This document shows positions 54,850 to 64,000 of a DNA stretch of 64,000 nt, piece after piece (position 1 is the stretch's first letter; each line of letters opens with the position of its first letter). Source of the stretch: Polyangiales bacterium (GTDB lineage: Bacteria > Myxococcota_A > Polyangia > Polyangiales > JAFGIB01); NCBI GenBank assembly GCA_036382515.1, contig DASVHQ010000289.1, positions 8,176 through 72,175 of the forward strand, read 5' to 3'. Below the pieces are notes generated by a model. That model saw only the letters and a program-made list of their open reading frames with translations, was not told the origin of the DNA and searched no databases. The position numbers and the translations under genes were made by a program.

Positions 54850-56748
54850 CTAGGCTTCGACCGGCTCTTCGTCCGAGCCCTCGGTTTCGTCCTCTGACGA
54901 TTCCTCGTCGATCTCGTCCGGCATGTCGTCGTGCTCGAAGGGCACGTCGATCTCGTCCTCGCCGCGCTCGTCGGCTTCGCCGACGGCGTCGTCGGCTTCG
55001 CCTGCCTCGCGCTGCGATTCGTCGAGCTCCTCGTCCCAGTCGGCATCGGTCGGCTGGGCTCGGGTTGTCGGCTCCGACTGCACGCGCTCGGACCCCTCGG
55101 ATTGGCGCTGTTCGCCAGCTTCGTTGCCCTGCGCGTCGCGCGCCGCTTCGCCGCGCTCTTCGCCACCGCGCCCGCGGTCATCGTCGGAACGCTCGGTAGA
55201 ACCCTGCGCTTCGCGATCGCGGCGCCGCGGCTCCGGTGCGCGCTCGCGCTGTTCGCGCTCACGCAGCTCGCGCTGCTCGCTGTTGTCACCGAGCGCCTCG
55301 AGCAGATCCAGGTCCAGCTCGTGGTGCGCGATCGCCTGTGTGCGTACGGCCACGCCGACACGCTCCATCGCGGTGGCGATGGCCATGCCGTCGAACAACG
55401 CGCATGGTGCCGCACCCGCCATCGCCGCTTCGTCGCGTGCGCCGCTCGTCATGCGGCCCGTGCTCAGAATCCAGGCACTGCTGGCTTGCCCGTAGTGATG
55501 CAACGCGCCGCGCACCTCGACCACCGTGTCGCGATCGATCTCACGCGCCGTGCGCACGACCACGATCGCCAGGCGGGTCTCTTCGCTGCCACGCTTGAGC
55601 GTGCCCGCGAAGTGGAACTCGGAGACGCTGCTGCCGGGACGGCGCACCGCACGCAGAGCCGTCACGCCCTCGGCGTTGAGCCACGTGGCAATCAGCTCGG
55701 CAAAACCTGCCGCGGGCAGGATGCCGAACTTTTGGATGAGCGTGCGGCGCAGCTCGACGCCGTAGCGCTCGGCGGCCGCGAGCAAGTCTTGCTCGACGCG
55801 CGCCAGGGGCCTTGGCAGGAGCCACTCGGTCAATGAGAGCCGACCGCCACGCACGCGGAAGCGAGAGTGTGTGCGGGTGAGCTCGGCGCGCGAGATGTCC
55901 GCGCGCACGGAGGCGGCGATGGTCGGGGCCAGCCCGGCGGGGTTGCCGCTCAATCGGCCACGGCGCACGAGCAACTCGGCCACGCGTACGAACGTATGCG
56001 GCCCGTGGTCGCCACGCGACAGCACGCTCCACACGGCGTCCGCCAGGTCCTTGCCCAGCAGGTCACCGTCGGCCGGCTGCCGGTTCCAGTCGAGCTGCGC
56101 GGTCTCTTCGACCCGACCGCGGTCGCGATCGCGGTCTCGATCACGGCCGTGGTCACGACCGTTGTCACGCATGCGATCTCGACCCTGGTCGCGCGGTAGA
56201 TCCCGCGGCCGCTCGCGGATCGGCTCGCGTGGAGCCTCGACCCGCACGGGCAGCTCGGGTGCGCCCTCGGGACGATCACCACCCTTGCCTCGGCGACGTC
56301 GGCGCCGCCTGCGACGCCCGTTCTTGTCCTCTTCGCTGCCTTCCTTCTCGAGGCCTGCGAGGATCGGATCGTCGTCGCCTTCTTCCTCGGGAAAGACGTC
56401 GCCGCCAGGCAGCTGGGCTACGACCGGCTCGGGCTTGGGGGCAGCCACTGCGCCCGGTTCTTCGATGGTGGCTTCGGCTTCGTTGGCTGCAGCTGCCGCA
56501 GCCGCCGCAGCGAAGTCTTCCAGCGCAGATTCGCGGATCGCGAACACGCCAGGTTTCACCTTCATGATCGGTGCCTGGCCGCGGTCCTTCTTGACCATCA
56601 TGGCGAGGCGCGAACTCATCGTCACTTCGGGCGTCTTGCCCACGTGCGAGAGCAGGTTTTTTTCGATCGCGAGCTCGGTGATCCTCTTGTAGTGCAGCGG
56701 TTCTCCGGCGCTACGCAGGACCTCCAGCGCCGCTTCCGTAAAAGTCAT
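54850..56748 (-). CDS. HARE-HTH domain protein with charged low-complexity linker, Mrr-like (restriction-endonuclease-fold) domain and acidic tail
   Basis: N-terminus MTFTEAALEVLRSAGEPLHYKRITELAIEKNLLSHVGKTPEVTMSSRL resembles the RNAP-delta/HARE-HTH type. Linker contains RRRRRRRRRGKGG...RDRDRDRDRGR. Central region is FAELIATWLNAEG...RLAIVVVRTAREI...VEVRGAL. The last ~120 aa are strongly acidic. Confidence 0.6.
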   Translation of the reverse strand: MTFTEAALEVLRSAGEPLHYKRITELAIEKNLLSHVGKTPEVTMSSRLAMMVKKDRGQAPIMKVKPGVFAIRESALEDFAAAAAAAAANEAEATIEEPGAVAAPKPEPVVAQLPGGDVFPEEEGDDDPILAGLEKEGSEEDKNGRRRRRRRRRGKGGDRPEGAPELPVRVEAPREPIRERPRDLPRDQGRDRMRDNGRDHGRDRDRDRDRGRVEETAQLDWNRQPADGDLLGKDLADAVWSVLSRGDHGPHTFVRVAELLVRRGRLSGNPAGLAPTIAASVRADISRAELTRTHSRFRVRGGRLSLTEWLLPRPLARVEQDLLAAAERYGVELRRTLIQKFGILPAAGFAELIATWLNAEGVTALRAVRRPGSSVSEFHFAGTLKRGSEETRLAIVVVRTAREIDRDTVVEVRGALHHYGQASSAWILSTGRMTSGARDEAAMAGAAPCALFDGMAIATAMERVGVAVRTQAIAHHELDLDLLEALGDNSEQRELREREQRERAPEPRRRDREAQGSTERSDDDRGRGGEERGEAARDAQGNEAGEQRQSEGSERVQSEPTTRAQPTDADWDEELDESQREAGEADDAVGEADERGEDEIDVPFEHDDMPDEIDEESSEDETEGSDEEPVEA

Positions 56749-56896
56749 TGAGTATGCTCGTTTCAGTAGGAAAAAGTTGCGAGAGTGTCGCGGAAGCTAA
56801 CACCTGGCCCCCAGCAGCGCAAACGCCAGCGTCAACCTGGCTGGCCCCGTCGCGTTGCGCTTCCCTTGGGCGCGGTGCTGCGCTATGTCGCGCGCG

Positions 56897-57172
56897 ATGG
56901 CCGACATTCGCGTCGAGCGTAAGCACGGATTGGGCAAAGAGGCAGCCCTCGCAGCCGCGCTGCAGGTCGCCGATCGCCTCAAGGAAAAGGCCCAGGTCGG
57001 CTATCGGGTCAACGGTGACACCATCGAGTTCGAGCGCACCGGAGCGAAGGGGCGCATCATCGTATCCGAAGACACCGTCGTCGCGGAAGTGCAGCTGGGC
57101 CTCTTGCTGAGACCGATGCGCAGCCTGGTCGAAGCCAAGATCGACGAGTACTTCGCGCGGTACATGAAATGA
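56897..57172 (+). CDS. small PHA-system protein family (PHA_gran_rgn-like)
   Basis: MADIRVERKHGLGKEAALAAALQVADRLKEK...GDTIEFERTGAKGRIIVSEDTVVAEVQLGLLLRPM... matches my recollection of this ~90-aa family. Confidence 0.55.
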   Translation: MADIRVERKHGLGKEAALAAALQVADRLKEKAQVGYRVNGDTIEFERTGAKGRIIVSEDTVVAEVQLGLLLRPMRSLVEAKIDEYFARYMK

Positions 57173-57314
57173 TCGCGCCACGACGTTTTTTTGACTGGTA
57201 CAGGCTCGTGGCTGTATCCGGAAAGGGTGAGCGTGCACGCAGCAGCAGCACCGTGAATGACGTGAGCTTCGGGCCGCGTCGCTCATGGCGACGCCGCCCA
57301 CGAAGGGAGCCGAC

Positions 57315-58319
57315 ATGAAGGACAAACGTATCGGGATCCTGATGGGCGGGATGAGCGCCGAACGGGAGGTCTCCGTGACCACGGGGAACGCGGTCTACCA
57401 GGCACTGACGGAGCGCGGTTACATCGCCACCAAGGTGTTCGTGGATCGCGACATCGATCAAGTGCTGCGACAGGAGCCCATCGACGTGGCCTTCCTGGCG
57501 TTGCACGGCTCGTACGGCGAAGATGGCTGCATCCAGGGTTTGCTCGAGATCCTGCAGATCCCGTACACCGGCGCTGGCGTGACCGAGAGCGCGCTGGCGA
57601 TGGACAAGCTCAAGACCAAGGAGCTGTTCCGGCTGCACAACGTGCCCACGCCGCCCTACTACGCGCTGCACGCCGAGCAACTTGGCGAGCTCGCCGAGAT
57701 CCACGGCTCGTTCGGCTACCCGGCCTTCGTGAAGCCGCGTCGGCAGGGCTCGAGCATCGGCGCCGGCTGCGCGCGGGATCTCGAGGATCTACGCCTGCGC
57801 TGTGAAGAAGCCGCGCGCTTCGACAGCTCCATCCTGGTCGAGCGCTTCATCGAGGGTCGCGAAGTGGCAGTCGGTCTGCTCGACGGCCGTGCCATGGGCG
57901 CCATCGAGATCGTGCCCAAGCACGGCGTCTACGACTACAAGTCGAAGTACCAGGCGGGCCGAAGCGAGTATCATTTCCCCGCGCGCTTGCCTCCGACGCG
58001 CTACGCGGGCGTGCTTCGCATCGCCGAGCGTGCAGTGCGTGCCGTGGGCGCCGAGGGCGCGACGCGCGTCGACATCCTCGTCTCCGAGGGCGAGAACGAG
58101 TACGTGCTCGAGGTCAACACTCTGCCCGGGATGACACCCACCTCGCTCCTGCCCAAGATCGCGGCCGGCTCCGGCTACGACTTCGGCGACCTGTGTGAAG
58201 CCATTCTGGACCGCGCCTCGCTCAAGCTCGGCCGGCTCTCCCACGCATCGGCTTCGTCGTATCCGGAAGCGAGCGACGTCATCGTGAGCGCCGGCGCTGA
58301 AGCGCGCGACGTCGCGTAG
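57315..58319 (+). CDS. ddl: D-alanine--D-alanine ligase
   Basis: RIGILMGGMSAEREVS, ATP-grasp core, EVNTLPGMT. ATG 57315 with AAGGGAG upstream. Confidence 0.94.
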   Translation: MKDKRIGILMGGMSAEREVSVTTGNAVYQALTERGYIATKVFVDRDIDQVLRQEPIDVAFLALHGSYGEDGCIQGLLEILQIPYTGAGVTESALAMDKLKTKELFRLHNVPTPPYYALHAEQLGELAEIHGSFGYPAFVKPRRQGSSIGAGCARDLEDLRLRCEEAARFDSSILVERFIEGREVAVGLLDGRAMGAIEIVPKHGVYDYKSKYQAGRSEYHFPARLPPTRYAGVLRIAERAVRAVGAEGATRVDILVSEGENEYVLEVNTLPGMTPTSLLPKIAAGSGYDFGDLCEAILDRASLKLGRLSHASASSYPEASDVIVSAGAEARDVA

Positions 58320-58326
58320 CAAATGC

Positions 58327-59346
58327 TCAACGACTCGTCGCTTCGGGAGGCGCAGCGTCGCGCTTGCCAAGCCACAGGCCGGCTTCTCCGCCGGCGCTGA
58401 TCACGTCCGCCCGGTAGACGAGCAGCGTCACTTCGCCGGCGCCCGTCTGCGCTTCGGACTCGATGGCCAGGTCGCCGGGCTCGTGCACGCACAGCTGCAC
58501 AGCGGCGCCTGCGTGGCCGCCTGCGCCCGCGCCAAGCTCAGCGCCGTGCTGGTCGAGCACGCGCACGGCGAGCTCGCTGATGCCCGCGTCGCCGAAGGCC
58601 GCAATCGTGTAGCACTTGCCGATTTGCACCGGCAGGCTGGTACGCACGCGCTCGCGTTCGGCGATCTTGAACACGAGCGGGTCGCGCACGGCCTCGAAGC
58701 CATGCTTGCGCAGGCCTTCCGCGAGACTGGTGGCGGCGTCTTCTTCGAGCTCGTGCGAGCCCACCGCTTCGGCAAAGGCGGGCCGTCCGCCGAGGACCCG
58801 CGCCACCGGTCCCAGCGCGCTGCGCGGGCCGCTGAACGATGCAACCACGAACGAACCGTCACCCTCGTAGAGCTGCACCACGTAGTACAGCATCTTCGCC
58901 ACGGGCCCGGCACAGGTCTGGATGGTCGGATGCGCGTTCGGCTCGGAGTCGACCGCGAGCAGCTCGCCCTCTGGCGTGTACAGGGCGGCGTCCACGTCCT
59001 GTACGGTCTTGGTGGCCAGGGCGAGCCAGGTCACGCAGCTGTTGGCGGCGACGTGCACGGCGAAGGTCGCGTGGTTCCCGCTTGGCAGGAAGCCCGTGTA
59101 CCGGTCCGGCCCCGGCTGCACGCCGAGCTGTGCGAGCACGCCGCTGATGCGCGCGACCACGGGCGCCAGACTGGGCGCCAGCGCGGCATCCGACGCACCT
59201 GCGGCGGTGCTTGCCGGAGAAGCCGTGGGTCGCGCAGTGGCCAGCCCCCCGGCACCCGAGCAGCCGAGGCACGCAGCGATCAGCGCGCCGCACAGCCTGC
59301 GCAGCGCGCGCCCGGCCAAGTGTCGATGTCTCGCGACCTGCCTCAA
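58327..59346 (-). CDS. secreted/lipoprotein with two ~70-aa two-cysteine repeat modules (PPC-like)
   Basis: Signal ...RRLCGALIAACLGCSG. TTG start at 59346 or 59319. Modules begin NSCVTWLALATKTVQDVDAALYTPEG... and GKCYTIAAFGDAGISELAVRVLDQHG.... Confidence 0.7.
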   Translation of the reverse strand: MRQVARHRHLAGRALRRLCGALIAACLGCSGAGGLATARPTASPASTAAGASDAALAPSLAPVVARISGVLAQLGVQPGPDRYTGFLPSGNHATFAVHVAANSCVTWLALATKTVQDVDAALYTPEGELLAVDSEPNAHPTIQTCAGPVAKMLYYVVQLYEGDGSFVVASFSGPRSALGPVARVLGGRPAFAEAVGSHELEEDAATSLAEGLRKHGFEAVRDPLVFKIAERERVRTSLPVQIGKCYTIAAFGDAGISELAVRVLDQHGAELGAGAGGHAGAAVQLCVHEPGDLAIESEAQTGAGEVTLLVYRADVISAGGEAGLWLGKRDAAPPEATSR

Positions 59347-60680
59347 GGGTGCTCCTGTTCTGCGGCTGCATCTCGTCCGAGCACCACGAGCAGGCGCGAA
59401 GCGCCATGCGCTTCGCGAGCGCGCACCGACAGCTGCAGCGCTTGCTGCGCGGTCGCGCAGTGGTACACGAGCGGAGCGCGCGCGGCGGCGGCATCGGTCG
59501 CCAGCAGCTCCCCGCGCTCGTCGGTGAGCCCGAGCTCCAGCGCTCCGGGTTTCGTCTCACCCACGGCCACGGCGGCGACCGCGTAGCACGCTGCCTCAGG
59601 CAAGCGCAGTGGCAGCCTCAGGATCTCCGCCGGGCTCACGATGGCTGTGGTCAGCAGCTGGGCGTGCATGCCGTGCTGCAGCATGCGCCGCGCCGTCTCT
59701 GCGTAGGCGATGCGGGCGGTTTCGTCGACGCCGGGCGGCAAGCGGGCGTCAGGCTCCTGCAACTCGAACGCTTGCACGCTGTACGCCCCCGCACCCTGGA
59801 ACACGGAGACATCCGCGATGTAGTGCGCCGGCGCGCTGGCGCAGAGCTTCACCATCGCGTTGCGTCGACGCGTCGTATCAGCCATCAGCGGCTCCGCGAA
59901 CAGGCGCGGCCCACCGAACATGCGCAGGTCCAGATCGACCACGTCGCGGCTGCCCACCGCGACCAGCGCATAGCAGTGCGCTGCATCCAGTTGCATGCCG
60001 CGAGCTTCGTGCTGCCCCGCCGCAAGCGTTCCGTACGCCAGGAGTGCGCCCGGTTTGTAGCCCAGCGGCGCGAGCGCAGCGCGCGTGTGCTCCATCTCTT
60101 CAGGGATGGAACGCGCCGCCGGCTCCGGCCCCACGTCGATCGCCGCAGGCCGCGGCTCGCCGATCCACGGGCAGCCGTCGAGTAGAGCAAGCGCGGCCAT
60201 GGGTTCGCTCGCATGGCCGAGCACTGCATAGCTGACCTCGCCCTGCCCATCCATCACGCGCAGCGTCACGAACACGCGGTCACCCGCGCGACCGCAGTAC
60301 AGGGCGTAGGGTTTCGCGCTCGGCCCGTCGGCGCGGGCTACCGTTCGGCCGTCTTCGGCGTTCACGCGCAGATCGATGTCTTGCACGTACTTCGCACCCA
60401 CTGCGATGAACGCCGCGCAGTCGTCTTGCGCGAGCACGTACGGATGCACTCGCACGTCGCCCGCCAGGAAGAACTCTTCGGACGGCGCTTGCAGCCAGTG
60501 CGAGCCCTCGTGGTGCTCGGTCTGCGCCTGCGCCGCGGTCAAGCATTCGTGCGCCGAGCCGGCCGCGGCATCGAGCGCTAGCGCCGCTGTTGGCGGCAGC
60601 AGCACGAGCCACGCCAGCACGCACTGAGCGGTCAGGGCTGACGAGCGGAGGAGTTGGTGCTGGCGTGAGCCGTGGCGCAT
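59343..60680 (-). CDS. secreted protein with three copies of the same two-cysteine repeat module
   Basis: Signal ...CVLAWLVLLPPTAALA|LD. Modules begin DDCAAFIAVGAKYVQDIDLRV..., AHCYALVAVGSRDVVDLDLRM..., AACYAVAAVAVGE.... An upstream start at 60725 is possible. Confidence 0.7.
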   Translation of the reverse strand: MRHGSRQHQLLRSSALTAQCVLAWLVLLPPTAALALDAAAGSAHECLTAAQAQTEHHEGSHWLQAPSEEFFLAGDVRVHPYVLAQDDCAAFIAVGAKYVQDIDLRVNAEDGRTVARADGPSAKPYALYCGRAGDRVFVTLRVMDGQGEVSYAVLGHASEPMAALALLDGCPWIGEPRPAAIDVGPEPAARSIPEEMEHTRAALAPLGYKPGALLAYGTLAAGQHEARGMQLDAAHCYALVAVGSRDVVDLDLRMFGGPRLFAEPLMADTTRRRNAMVKLCASAPAHYIADVSVFQGAGAYSVQAFELQEPDARLPPGVDETARIAYAETARRMLQHGMHAQLLTTAIVSPAEILRLPLRLPEAACYAVAAVAVGETKPGALELGLTDERGELLATDAAAARAPLVYHCATAQQALQLSVRAREAHGASRLLVVLGRDAAAEQEHP

Positions 60681-60822
60681 GCAGGCGTTCTTGGATAGAG
60701 GGTAGCGCCCGCCACGCCGCGGCACCGGCCGATTCTGCCCAGGCGCTGTCCGGGGGCGCCGAGAAGTGGGTTCTTGACATTTCCGATAGGCTTAACCAGA
60801 TTCCCTCGGTCAGCCCAGTCGC

Positions 60823-61278
60823 ATGAAGCTCTCGAGCAAAGGTCTCTACGGGGTGCAGGCCATCTTCCACTTGGCCTTCCACGCCGACGGCGCAGAAGCG
60901 CAAATCAAGGAGATCTGTGAGCGCCAGGCCATCCCGCCACGCTTCCTGGAGCAGGTGTTTCAGGACCTGCGCAAGGCCGGCATCGTGACCTCCAGGCGCG
61001 GTCCCCGCGGCGGCTACAAGCTGGCCCAGCCGCCCGAGCGAATCCGGCTCGGTGACATCATTCGGGCGCTGGAAGGCCCCGTCCAGCTGCTGCCCGCCGG
61101 CCGGCACAAAGAACCCACCGAATCCTCGAGCCACGCAGTCGCGCAAGACATTTTCAAGGGGCTTTCCAGCGGCATCGAAGCCTGCTTGGATGCCGTCACC
61201 GTGGCGGACATGTGCAGCAAGGCGGAGGCGCTGGGCATCGCCCGCCGCCCCCCGCCCGCTTACGTCTACGCCATCTAG
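60823..61278 (+). CDS. Rrf2-family transcriptional regulator (CymR-like, no Fe-S cysteine triad)
   Basis: MKLSSKGLYGVQAIFHLA...IPPRFLEQVFQDLRKAGIVTSRRGPRGGYKLA. The region after the wHTH lacks the three IscR-type cysteines. Confidence 0.88.
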   Translation: MKLSSKGLYGVQAIFHLAFHADGAEAQIKEICERQAIPPRFLEQVFQDLRKAGIVTSRRGPRGGYKLAQPPERIRLGDIIRALEGPVQLLPAGRHKEPTESSSHAVAQDIFKGLSSGIEACLDAVTVADMCSKAEALGIARRPPPAYVYAI

Positions 61279-61318
61279 TCGGTACAAACCCTGGCCGGAC
61301 AACCCTGCTCGGACAAAC

Positions 61319-62245
61319 ATGGTCGCGCCAGTCATCAACTCCCCGCTCGAGCTCGTCGGCCACACGCCGTTGATACGGCTGAACCGTGTCGTAACTGACA
61401 CGGGTGCCACCGTCTGGGGCAAGGCCGAGCAGATGAACCCCGGAGGCTCGGTCAAGGACCGAATCTGCCTGGCCATGATCGAGCAGGCCGAGCAGCAAGG
61501 CCGCATCAAGCCGGGCGCCACCATCGTCGAGCCCACCTCCGGCAACACCGGCATCGGTCTGGCGCTGGTCTGCGCCATCAAGGGGTATCGGCTCGTGCTG
61601 ACCATGCCCGAGAGCATGTCGCTGGAGCGGCGTGCGCTGCTGCAGGCCTACGGCGCGAAGATCGTGCTCACGCCCGCCGAGCAAGTCATGGAAGGTGCCA
61701 TCGCCGCGGCGCGCGAGATCGTCGAGAGCGAGGGCGCGTTCATGCCCATGCAGTTCGACAACCCGGCCAACCCGGAGAGCCACGGCGTGCATACCGCCGC
61801 CGAGATCCTCGAGTCGCTCGGTGAGCTGCGCGTGCACACCTTCGTGGCTGCCGTGGGCACCGGAGGCACGGTCAGCGGTGTGGGCAAGCGGTTGAAACAG
61901 CACGATTCGAAGATCCGCATCATCGCGGTCGAGCCCGAGAGCTCGCAGGTGCTAGCCGGCGGCGAGCCGGGTCCCACCAAGATCCAGGGCATCGGTGCCG
62001 GCTTCATCCCGAAGAACTTCGATCGCAGCGTGGTCGACGAAGTGCTGCACGTGAGCGACCGCGCCGCCTACGACATGAAGGTCCGGCTGGCGCGCGAGGA
62101 AGGCTTGCTGGTCGGCATCAGCGCCGGCGCGAACGTGGTCGCCGCCGCACGCGTCGCCGCTGCGCTCGGACCGGACCAGCACGTCGTGACGGTGCTCTGC
62201 GACACCGGTGAGCGCTACTTCAGCCTGGACGAGTACTTCGCATGA
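61319..62245 (+). CDS. cysK: cysteine synthase A (O-acetylserine sulfhydrylase)
   Basis: GHTPLIRLNRV, NPGGSVKDRI (PLP lysine), TSGNTGIGLA, GTGGTVSG. ATG 61319. Confidence 0.93.
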   Translation: MVAPVINSPLELVGHTPLIRLNRVVTDTGATVWGKAEQMNPGGSVKDRICLAMIEQAEQQGRIKPGATIVEPTSGNTGIGLALVCAIKGYRLVLTMPESMSLERRALLQAYGAKIVLTPAEQVMEGAIAAAREIVESEGAFMPMQFDNPANPESHGVHTAAEILESLGELRVHTFVAAVGTGGTVSGVGKRLKQHDSKIRIIAVEPESSQVLAGGEPGPTKIQGIGAGFIPKNFDRSVVDEVLHVSDRAAYDMKVRLAREEGLLVGISAGANVVAAARVAAALGPDQHVVTVLCDTGERYFSLDEYFA

Positions 62246-63297
62246 GCTCGCTGGCGGACAAGCGCGTGCTCTTGGTGGGGGCCGGCGGGCTCGGCTCACC
62301 GGTGGCACTGGTGCTGGCCGCGAGCGGGGTCGGCGCGATCGAGATCGCGGACGACGATCGGGTCTCGGCGACCAACCTGCACCGTCAGCTGCTGTACGGC
62401 GCCGCGGACGTCGGCCGTTCCAAGGCCATCGCCGCCTGTGAACGCGTGACGCGGGTCGCCAGCGAGGCTGGAAACTTGACAAGCGCTGTTGCACGTGAAA
62501 TGCGCTTCGACCCAGGTGTCGACCCTGAATCACTGCGCAAATTCGCGGTAGTGGTCGACGGAGTCGACAATTTCCCGAGCAAGTTCCTGCTCGCAGACGC
62601 CTGCGCGATCGCTGGTGTGCCGTGTGTGCAGGGTGGCGCGGTCCGCTGGGGTGGCTGGGCTCTGGCCAGCGTGCCTGGGCGCGGCCCCTGCTTGCGCTGC
62701 GTGTTCGAGGACATTCCGCAGGGCCCCGACCGTGGCTGCGCCGAAGCGGGCGTGGTCGGGCCGGTCGTCGGGGTGATCGGGGCGCTGCAAGCCGCGCTGG
62801 CGCTGCGCCTCTTGCACGGCGACCTCGACGCGGCCGGAGCCCTCTACCACTACGACGGGCTCGCCGGCTCGTTGCGCCGGACCCGAGTGGCGCGTTCGGC
62901 TACTTGCCGCTTGTGCGCCGGCGAAATTCGCGATTTGAAGGCGGACCGCTACCTCCCGCGCGAGTGCGCGGCCGAAGGCACGTACGCGGCATCTACATCG
63001 AGGAGAAACACCATGGCCATCACCGTTCGCGTTCCCACCCCGTTGCGCACCCTCACCCAAGGCAAAGACGAAGTCGAAGCCAAGGGCGCAACCATCCGCG
63101 AGCTCATCGAAGACCTCGAGCGCAACCATCCAGGGCTCAAGGAACGGCTGTGCGACGACAAGGGCGTGCGTCGCTTCGTGAACATCTACCAAAACGAGGA
63201 AGACATCCGCTTCCTCGAAGGGCTCGACACCAAGCTGAAGGATGGCGACTCGATCAGCATCGTGCCTGCCATCGCTGGCGGAGCCTCGGGCGGCTGA
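62242..63297 (+). CDS. ThiF/MoeB-type adenylyltransferase (E1-like, N-terminal helix absent) fused in frame to a MoaD/ThiS/CysO-type sulfur-carrier domain
   Basis: One open frame. E1 motifs: VGAGGLGS, DDDRVSATNLHRQ, VVDGVDNF, CLRC and CRLC. An 11-aa linker is followed by a 94-aa beta-grasp ending PAIAGGASGG*. ATGA overlap with the cysK stop. Confidence 0.85.
   Translation: MSSLADKRVLLVGAGGLGSPVALVLAASGVGAIEIADDDRVSATNLHRQLLYGAADVGRSKAIAACERVTRVASEAGNLTSAVAREMRFDPGVDPESLRKFAVVVDGVDNFPSKFLLADACAIAGVPCVQGGAVRWGGWALASVPGRGPCLRCVFEDIPQGPDRGCAEAGVVGPVVGVIGALQAALALRLLHGDLDAAGALYHYDGLAGSLRRTRVARSATCRLCAGEIRDLKADRYLPRECAAEGTYAASTSRRNTMAITVRVPTPLRTLTQGKDEVEAKGATIRELIEDLERNHPGLKERLCDDKGVRRFVNIYQNEEDIRFLEGLDTKLKDGDSISIVPAIAGGASGG
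63013..63297 (+). CDS. possible independently translated CysO/MoaD-like sulfur carrier (internal start within the fusion frame)
   Basis: AGGAGA at 63001-63006 lies 6 nt before ATG 63013. MAITVRVPTPLRTL...VNIYQNEEDIRFLEGLDTKLKDGDSISIVPAIAGGASGG resembles archaeal-type MoaD/CysO. Confidence 0.55.
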   Translation: MAITVRVPTPLRTLTQGKDEVEAKGATIRELIEDLERNHPGLKERLCDDKGVRRFVNIYQNEEDIRFLEGLDTKLKDGDSISIVPAIAGGASGG

Positions 63298-63299
63298 AC

Positions 63300-63680
63300 G
63301 TGCTCAGCGACCACGAAAAACAGTTGTACGCGCGGCATCTGCTGCTTTTGGAGATCGGCGAGCGCGGGCAAGAGAAGCTGTGTGCGGCGCAGGTCGCAAT
63401 GGCGCAGCTGGGCGACGCGCGTGCGAGCGCGGTGGCCCGCGAGTATCTGCAGCGAGGGGGCACGAGCTGCGCTGCCGCCGTCAGCGGCGGCACGCAGGTC
63501 GAGTTGGCGCTGCCCGATGCCAGCGCTGTGGACGCGCTCGCGGGTGATCCGAGGCTGCAACACGCAGCCGCGTGGCTCGCGGGCTCGTTCGCCGCGGTCG
63601 AGGCGATCAAGCAGATCGTCGGCGTCGGCCGTGCGGGGGCGATCCCCGAAACCTTCTCTCTTTCTTCGGAGGTCGGTTGA
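63300..63680 (+). CDS. 126-aa degenerate ThiF/MoeB-like protein (N-terminal helix and C-terminal helix retained, nucleotide loop degenerate, core missing)
   Basis: GTG 63300 lies 2 nt after the carrier stop, and the stop overlaps the next ATG. VLSDHEKQLYARHLLLLEIGERGQEKLCAAQVAMAQLGDARASAVAREYLQRGG compares with MoeB [50 protein letters not shown]. The C-terminal WLAGSFAAVEAIKQIVGVG compares with GVIGSLQAMEAIKMLAGYG. Confidence 0.55.
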   Translation: MLSDHEKQLYARHLLLLEIGERGQEKLCAAQVAMAQLGDARASAVAREYLQRGGTSCAAAVSGGTQVELALPDASAVDALAGDPRLQHAAAWLAGSFAAVEAIKQIVGVGRAGAIPETFSLSSEVG

Positions 63681-64000
63681 TGGCACGTCCGCTTCGCATG
63701 AGCTCGGTGGTCGATGCCGTGGGGCAAACACCGCTGGTGCGCCTGCATCACATCGGTCGCGACAGCCCCGGCGTGAAGGTGTTTCTGAAGCTCGAGTACA
63801 TGAATCCCGGCGGCTCGGTGAAGGACCGTCCGGCGTTGCAGATGATGAAAGACGCCATCGCCGATGGGCGCCTGACGCGCGACAAGATCTTGATCGACGC
63901 CACCAGTGGCAACACCGGCGTGGCGTACTCGATCTTCGGCGCGGCGCTCGGCTATCGCATCGCGCTCGTCATGCCCGCCAACGTGTCGCAGGCGCGCAAG
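63680..64000 (+). CDS. cysM: cysteine synthase paralog (CysM-like), 5' part; continues beyond window
   Basis: Not in the ORF track (open at the edge). MARPLRMSSVVDAVGQTPLVRLHHI...LEYMNPGGSVKDRPALQMM...DATSGNTGVAYS. Confidence 0.85.
   Translation, partial: MARPLRMSSVVDAVGQTPLVRLHHIGRDSPGVKVFLKLEYMNPGGSVKDRPALQMMKDAIADGRLTRDKILIDATSGNTGVAYSIFGAALGYRIALVMPANVSQARK

Follow-up and report, generated by a model that had tools for sequence, protein, structure and literature searches.

The CysO pathway of Mycobacterium tuberculosis proceeds through adenylation of the sulfur carrier CysO, formation of its thiocarboxylate, formation of an adduct by CysM, and hydrolysis by Mec+ (PMC3227635). Sulfur carriers are also known to share one chain with a pathway partner, as in MoaX (MoaD-MoaE) of M. 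tuberculosis, ThiS-ThiG, and ThiS-ThiF-rhodanese (PMC4326299; PMC1779556). In these proteins the carrier is N-terminal and its Gly-Gly (GG) motif is internal, and MoaX requires cleavage after Gly82 (PMC4326299). A ubiquitin fold and an E1 domain are likewise combined in the ubiquitin-like (Ubl) Ubl-ThiF proteins of Campylobacter and relatives (Iyer, Burroughs and Aravind 2006), where the Ubl domain precedes ThiF in the chain, ThiS is encoded by a neighboring gene of its own, and another role has been proposed for the fused Ubl (PMC1779556). Here we describe a locus in a stretch of 64,000 nucleotides (nt) from a Polyangiales bacterium (contig DASVHQ010000289.1, positions 8,176 to 72,175; hereafter, the window), where a ThiF/MoeB-type adenylyltransferase (E1) and a CysO-type sulfur carrier are encoded as a single in-frame fusion. 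Unlike the carriers of MoaX, ThiS-ThiG, and ThiS-ThiF-rhodanese, the carrier in the window is C-terminal, with its end already free, and unlike the Ubl domain of Ubl-ThiF it is a genuine carrier.

The locus shares with the CysO/CysM/Mec+/MoeZR system of M. tuberculosis a CysO-type carrier, a CysM-type pyridoxal phosphate (PLP) enzyme, a JAB/JAMM peptidase, and an E1. It differs from that system in its additional cysK gene and Rrf2 regulator and in the fusion, peculiar to this genome, of the carrier to the E1. Compared with MoeZR, the E1 of the window has no rhodanese domain (no match in the 351-amino-acid [aa] protein with Pfam or NCBIfam), its gene is part of the operon, its N-terminal helix is missing, and a small ThiF-like protein, mini-ThiF, occurs beside it. 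The absence of the rhodanese domain, together with the retention of both CxxC motifs, indicates that this E1 is of the MoeB type and not of the MoeZ type.

The junction in the window was re-read codon by codon over positions 62941-63030 (coordinates refer to the window and to its + strand unless stated otherwise). This reading and the list of open reading frames (ORFs) both gave a single open frame of 351 codons at 62242-63297, with no stop between the E1 and the carrier. The junction DNA reads GAG TGC GCG GCC GAA GGC ACG TAC GCG GCA TCT ACA TCG AGG AGA AAC ACC ATG GCC ATC and is translated as ECAA-EGTYAASTSRRNT-MAITV. The E1 domain occupies aa 1-244 (62242-62973) and is followed by codon 245, GAA (62974-62976), which is the first of the 13 codons of the linker EGTYAASTSRRNT (62974-63012, GAA plus 36 nt). 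The CysO-type sulfur carrier, of 94 aa, occupies aa 258-351 (63013-63297). A Shine-Dalgarno (SD) sequence, AGGAGA (63001-63006), lies 6 nt ahead of the carrier ATG (63013-63015). The uninterrupted frame and the position of the internal SD sequence had both been noted in a preliminary description of this DNA, and both were borne out. The domain assignment proposed there, a ThiF/MoeB domain followed by a ThiS/MoaD-like carrier, was also confirmed by profile searches. PF00899 (ThiF) matches aa 3-223 with profile positions 17-237 (E 5.4e-55, 186.6 bits versus a cut-off of 28.1), and PF02597 (ThiS) matches aa 262-347 (E about 7e-19, 68.6 bits versus a cut-off of 22.5).

An identical 351-aa protein is present at NCBI as HEX7479829.1, from a third-party annotation (TPA) metagenome-assembled genome (MAG) named ‘Polyangiales bacterium’. 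It is labelled ‘MoaD family protein’, which calls for caution with annotation, since a 351-aa fusion is filed under this name. In the Logan assembly of run SRR10489814, contig L029 is 100% identical to positions 56423-64000 of the window (7,578 nt), junction included. The fusion is therefore confirmed in the assembled sequence of one soil myxobacterial genome.

Related loci were collected by a scan with one genome per species, which gave 14 loci with the same order of E1 and carrier from Polyangiales, Sandaracinaceae, and ‘Myxococcales’ MAGs, one of them (L005) incomplete at its contig end. In all 14, the E1 stop directly follows the C terminus of the protein (typically the residues CAA, around aa 244) and aligns with codon 245 of the window. 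These stops are TGA in 12 loci, TAA in one, and TAG in one, and the E1 lengths range from 240 to 249 aa. Each stop is followed by a spacer of 13 to 90 nt with an SD-like sequence and then by the carrier ATG. The 36 nt between GAA and ATG in the window equal the spacer length of the two closest loci (L001 and L002). Relatives thus stop where the window reads GAA, which supports the earlier proposal of a recent loss of the E1 stop, with function maintained by the internal start; a comparison of orthologous junctions had been suggested as its check, and a stop was found in 14 of 14.

The separation of the two genes extends to the protein matches. Among the best 120, all 106 at 55% identity or more are E1s of 230 to 265 aa without a carrier, so that neither the loci nor these matches point to a fusion shared across the clade. 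In a neighbor-joining tree the window is nested among unfused E1s, and its nearest neighbors, at 80, 73, and 69% identity, are all unfused. The closest of these (80% identity) has a 244-aa E1 and, 57 nt downstream, a separate 94-aa carrier that shares a 90% cluster with the window protein. Since the close relatives keep the genes apart, the fusion is likely to be young. In 5 of the 14 relatives (L001-L005) the spacer is in frame and stop-free, which places these loci one mutation short of the same fusion, and at the 68% GC of the window a 12-codon stretch is stop-free with a probability of about 0.77. As judged from the alignment, the fusion could have arisen either by substitution (TAA to GAA) or by loss of the T from TGA. 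Programmed read-through or selenocysteine insertion at the TGA of the relatives was also considered and rejected, given that the spacers are in frame in only 6 of the 14 loci; it is further disfavored by spacer lengths (13-90 nt) and sequences that are not conserved.

The linker looks like non-coding, former intergenic DNA in both composition and predicted structure. Its GC content at third codon positions (GC3) is 0.62, versus 0.82 for the E1, 0.80 for the carrier, and 0.82 for the next gene. The AlphaFold2 model of the 351-aa protein has a mean predicted local distance difference test (pLDDT) of 90 and a predicted template modeling score (pTM) of 0.70, and the linker region, with pLDDT below 50 at aa 243-255, is its sole internal segment of such low confidence. 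Coding-like behavior of the linker combined with lost internal start signals was looked for and was not found, since GC3 is low, the segment is predicted to be disordered, and the SD sequence and ATG are intact. The RNA at 62950-63050 folds less stably than 193 of 200 dinucleotide shuffles (z +1.58), and this weak folding around the internal SD sequence and ATG fits an initiation region that is open to ribosomes. The tether, counted from the last zinc cysteine, measures about 32 residues, of which 13 are predicted to be disordered. In principle, this length would allow the carrier to reach either of the two active sites in an E1 dimer.

The carrier passes as a beta-grasp ThiS/MoaD domain with a C-terminal Gly-Gly, and it scores 57 bits against TIGR01687 (cut-off 49.5). 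From its own Met1 onward, it aligns over its full length with M. tuberculosis CysO from residue 1 (3dwg_C, E 4.4e-23), and Met1 also aligns with residue 1 of the CysO-like chain 4n6e_B (E 3.3e-29). This indicates that the ATG at 63013 is the orthologous, normal start of the carrier. Both alignments stop at the conserved AGG. Beyond this point, the window reads AIAGG-ASGG (63277-63297, followed by TGA), and the relatives end in GG, GGR, GGH, GGSRS, GGSWHG, GGAGRE, or GGAAV. Variable tails after a conserved GG imply C-terminal trimming, and the JAB peptidase encoded two genes downstream is presumably responsible for it, besides its role in cysteine release. The attachment of the carrier through its N terminus leaves the C terminus free, in agreement with the reasoning of the preliminary description, in which the C-terminal GG is the site of adenylation and thiocarboxylation by the E1. 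CysO with an N-terminal His6 tag remains a normal substrate for thiocarboxylation by its E1 (PMC3227635), which shows that N-terminal extensions are tolerated in principle.

Taken together, it is likely that the stop codon was lost recently, that free carrier is still made, and that the fusion is tolerated. The ancestral E1 stop would have been lost, leaving GAA at codon 245, and the 36-nt former spacer would have been in frame and free of stops, so that ribosomes translating the E1 would continue into cysO. Ribosomes starting at 62242, coupled to the termination of cysK, would read to 63297 and give E1~CysO of 351 aa, and the unchanged ancestral SD sequence and ATG would give free CysO of 94 aa from 63013. 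Production of both the fusion and the free carrier is plausible on the strength of these signals. The mixture would consist mainly of free CysO, with E1~CysO at the lower level of E1 translation. Since the carrier is joined by its N terminus, its C terminus would be available and the chemistry would not be blocked; after trimming of ASGG, the C-terminal glycines could still be adenylated and thiocarboxylated. In the pathway as we envisage it, the E1 would adenylate the C terminus of CysO and a sulfur donor would convert the adenylate to the thiocarboxylate; the E1 itself has no rhodanese domain. The CysM-type PLP enzyme would then build CysO-cysteine, from which the JAB peptidase would free cysteine, besides trimming the carrier tail. 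The fusion is probably near-neutral, a tolerated by-product and not a designed device. It is itself of modest importance. It offers a snapshot of the birth of a gene fusion: one stop codon changed, the spacer in this GC-rich genome was in frame and without stops, and the downstream start stayed intact. It also provides a natural construct with which to test if a ubiquitin-fold carrier joined to the C terminus of an E1 can be activated by that enzyme.

Fusions at the same junction were found in other lineages. E1-carrier single chains account for 14 of the best 120 protein matches. The P0028-type fusion is represented by nine 90%-identity clusters from four sources (JGI, ENA, NCBI, and Logan). 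In this lineage, the fusion is limited to proteins of at least 91% identity; two relatives at 88-91% are unfused (236 aa), as are all those at 78% or less. An ancient conserved fusion clade in the Polyangiaceae was also considered and was rejected by a search with the E1 part of P0028 alone.

A pair of Polyangiaceae loci differs in state at this junction, which accounts for the 236-aa forms: L036 reads GTAGAAAGAGGAGAGCCATGG where the fused L030 reads GTAG--AGAGGAGAGCCATGG. The 2-nt indel (AA) in GTAG(AA)AGAGGAGAGCCATG separates L030 (6655-6680) from L036 (975-1000). L030 encodes an in-frame fusion of 314 aa, and L036 encodes proteins of 236 and 90 aa with an out-of-frame overlap of 34 nt. Given this overlap, the L036 carrier can be made from its own start only. 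The two loci have the same SD sequence and ATG.

Further fusions of independent origin, whose linkers are unrelated, are P0008 (in two datasets that differ by a few bases), P0038, P0061, P0004, and P0111. A library clustered at 50% identity contained P0140, P0141, and P0152, as well as the ThiF-TusA-ThiS protein P0138. The Met at the carrier start is kept in all independent fusions, and a strong SD sequence is found 3 to 6 nt upstream of the carrier in four of the five independent junctions examined at the DNA level. Other combinations in a single chain (P0138, P0139, P0144, P0148, P0149, and P0229) comprise ThiF-TusA-ThiS, ThiS-rhodanese-ThiF, ThiS-ThiF-rhodanese, JAB-ThiS-rhodanese-ThiF, and tandem ThiS-ThiS. 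The E1-carrier chains of the databases (the P0028 group, P0008, P0038, P0111, P0140, P0141, and P0152) have the same domain order, carrier family, and type of operon (PALP and JAB) as the window. They differ from it in origin and linker: each arose independently, the linkers span 6 to more than 40 residues, and the event in the window is its own. Fusion at the E1/carrier junction thus recurs, is genuine in several lineages, and is shallow each time, and the junction in this operon family flips among split, overlapping, and fused states. Iyer et al. (2006) catalogue only Ubl-ThiF (N-terminal), ThiS-ThiG, and MoaD-MoaE (PMC1779556), and a literature search found no paper describing a C-terminal E1-carrier fusion. 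The architecture is already present in public protein sets, and the window fusion is a new instance of a recurring but uncharacterized arrangement.

Several observations weigh against a recent, tolerated loss of the stop. The evidence is an assembled consensus, which leaves a slight chance of an erroneous base or of a minority allele, and internal initiation and the product ratio are what we infer from it. The nine P0028-type clusters show the spread of at least one fusion through a lineage, in keeping also with a mild advantage. In addition, the fusion buries the conserved E1 C terminus (Cys at −3, 178 of 235 unfused E1s) in a longer chain, which might carry a cost and sits uneasily with strict neutrality. 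One alternative is that the fusion is selected, with a self-charging E1~CysO that raises the local concentration of carrier or channels sulfur, and with an internal start that adds free carrier, making this a two-isoform gene. The repeated origin of E1-carrier fusions with a free C-terminal GG speaks for this alternative, as do the spread of the P0028 type, the resemblance of ThiF-TusA-ThiS (P0138) to an ordered sulfur relay and the retention of the Met and usually also of the SD sequence. We nevertheless consider it unlikely. No deep clade keeps the fusion, each instance being embedded among unfused relatives, and the fusion of the window is a singleton whose linker is intergenic in composition and has no predicted structure. 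Moreover, the AlphaFold2 model leaves the C-terminal tail undocked (aa 346-351, pLDDT below 50), without speaking against docking, and retention of the SD sequence and ATG is equally expected from recency.

It is very unlikely that the two genes are really separate and that a base-call error, an assembly error, or a minority variant affects the stop codon in the MAG. The source is indeed a third-party MAG, a single base decides (TAA to GAA, or the T lost from TGA), and the second assembly probably derives from the same reads. However, the comparison of two different assemblies shows no mismatch over 7.6 kb, the site of the lost stop lies outside any homopolymer, and the analogous fusions in independent datasets of other lineages show that the state is biologically possible. 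Recent loss of the E1 stop remains our preferred reading of the junction.

The E1 was assigned from its Pfam ThiF match, alignments, and Foldseek. It aligns with E. coli ThiF residues 25-247 and MoeB residues 28-248, and its model superimposes on ThiF 1zud and MoeB 1jw9 with a Foldseek TM score of 0.83 and a root mean square deviation of about 2 Å. The GxGGxG loop and the equivalents of MoeB R73, K86, and D130 are present; in an alignment of 72 sequences, G13, G15, G16, and G18 of this P-loop, R48, K61, D109, and the two CxxC motifs are invariant. The scores are below the equivalog cut-offs of MoeB (PRK08762, 177.5 versus 449), ThiF (TIGR02356, 175.6 versus 275.25), and MoeZ (136 versus 647), which indicates a distinct subfamily and not MoeB, ThiF, or MoeZ proper. 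Because the protein starts at the equivalent of MoeB 28 and ThiF 25, it is without the N-terminal arginine-finger helix (MoeB R14, ThiF R11). At its other end, it carries an extra tail of about 18 residues (62920-62973, aa 227-244) that ends in RECAA, whereas E. coli MoeB and ThiF end just past the second CxxC. In the unfused relatives this tail ends in C-A-A or C-A-G, with a Cys within the last six residues in 178 of 235. In an E1 without a rhodanese domain, such a conserved Cys, placed three residues before a free C terminus, could serve as a sulfur-relay arm, and the fusion makes this Cys internal.

The carrier is followed by mini-ThiF (63300-63680), a degenerate ThiF/MoeB remnant of 126 aa that matches the NCBIfam MoeB profile at positions 4-56 and has no Pfam match. 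The gene after the carrier was sought in the relatives with a hidden Markov model search of all frames. In each of the 14 unfused relatives, mini-ThiF comes next after the carrier; it is detected more weakly in three fused loci and is absent in L035. A profile of 18 orthologues matches MoeB 1jw9_B at residues 4-94 and 199-220 (E 4.4e-7), and R12 of mini-ThiF, invariant in 18 of 18, is aligned with MoeB R14. The N-terminal helix is thus kept; ADAR stands in place of the Gly-rich loop, and no catalytic core is present. Modeled alone with AlphaFold2, mini-ThiF has a pLDDT of 90 and a pTM of 0.84. A Foldseek search of this model against the PDB gave no significant match (best E 0.64), the top-ranked chains being E1-like. 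L035 (5001-6526) encodes a fused, N-terminally truncated E1~carrier directly followed by JAB, with no mini-ThiF and no PALP genes, which shows that mini-ThiF is not universally linked to truncated E1s.

The arginine finger corresponds to MoeB R14 and ThiF R11 and in ThiF is contributed by the neighboring subunit; it has been reported to be non-essential in MoeB and ThiF (PMC13139853). In yeast, Tcd1/Tcd2 form an E1-like heterodimer in which the finger is supplied by the inactive partner (PMC13139853). The window encodes a comparable combination, with a degenerate E1 paralogue that bears the arginine finger beside a catalytic subunit that has none. This pairing of a truncated catalytic E1 with a finger-bearing remnant is conserved in the myxobacterial operon, independently of the fusion. 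The preliminary description had linked the fusion to mini-ThiF; this link holds as genomic context but not as a dependence, given that the 14 unfused relatives all have mini-ThiF. It had also proposed that a tethered carrier could be activated only in trans, which found no support here, and the corresponding alternative, in which activation occurs only across an E1 dimer or an E1:mini-ThiF pair and the fusion depends on mini-ThiF, is the least likely of those considered and extremely improbable: although the E1 has lost the helix that mini-ThiF keeps and E1-like enzymes use the finger of a neighboring subunit (PMC13139853), the finger is reportedly non-essential in MoeB and ThiF (PMC13139853), the partly disordered tether does not forbid docking in cis, and the occurrence of mini-ThiF with unfused E1s together with its absence beside the fused E1 of L035 shows that its presence is unrelated to the fusion.

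As predicted from the gene pair, the E1 and mini-ThiF may form an asymmetric pair or heterodimer. Such a pair would resemble SAE1/UBA2, NAE1/UBA3, and Tcd1/Tcd2 in combining a catalytic subunit of the E1 fold with a degenerate subunit that gives the finger (PMC13139853; PMC12355090). It would differ from them in that mini-ThiF is a protein of just 126 aa that has lost the entire catalytic core and is known here from genes and a single-chain model. A fuller scheme would be a bacterial asymmetric E1, in which mini-ThiF supplies the helix in trans, comparably to the inactive and active adenylation domains of eukaryotic E1s, and the carrier is both tethered and free, resulting in a single-site E1 with a built-in substrate encoded by a two-isoform gene; this we put forward as doubtful. 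The split of E1 features between the truncated E1 and mini-ThiF is more unusual than the fusion and deserves more attention, as it would bear on the origin of asymmetric E1 enzymes.

The fusion and the tightly packed genes around it make up the gene set of the CysO-dependent cysteine pathway known from M. tuberculosis, with the differences given above. The first gene of the cluster (60823-61278) encodes a regulator of the Rrf2 family, CymR/IscR-like (Pfam Rrf2, E 1.4e-35; rrf2_super, 117 bits, cut-off 73). It is followed by a cysK-type cysteine synthase, a PLP enzyme (61319-62245; TIGR01139, 408.9 bits, cut-off 350.95), whose TGA overlaps the ATG of the E1 (ATGA). From this overlap, cysK is predicted to be translationally coupled to the E1. 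Downstream, the 126-aa ORF of mini-ThiF starts with GTG at 63300, 2 nt after the carrier stop, and its own stop overlaps by 1 nt the start of a cysM-type PLP enzyme (63680-64000; PALP, E 1.4e-25) that runs past the end of the window. On L029, the full cysM-type protein has 308 aa and scores 333 bits against TIGR01138 (cysM), below the cut-off of 394; it matches CysM of E. coli (2bhs, E 3.6e-69) and of M. tuberculosis (3dwg_A, E 2.2e-57). The E1 and the carrier are thus flanked by two PLP genes of the cysteine synthase type, a cysK equivalog upstream and a cysM-like gene downstream. Beyond the window, the identical Logan contig encodes a Prok-JAB peptidase of 166 aa (L029 8174-8674), and the gene order on L029 is PALP, E1~ThiS, 126 aa, PALP, and Prok-JAB. 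A carrier, a CysM-type PLP enzyme, and a JAMM/JAB peptidase are therefore encoded together, and the cluster is a CysO-type cysteine operon composed of Rrf2, cysK, E1~cysO, mini-ThiF, cysM, and JAB.

A scan for promoters and terminators found neither sigma-70-like nor terminator-like sites within the cluster on the + strand, and the window had no match to an Rfam family. Divergent from the cysteine cluster are two adjacent genes on the − strand, at 58327-59346 and 59343-60725, that encode proteins of 339 and 445-460 aa and for which no Pfam family is on record. An Rrf2 gene is also found upstream of the E1 in L033 and L035.

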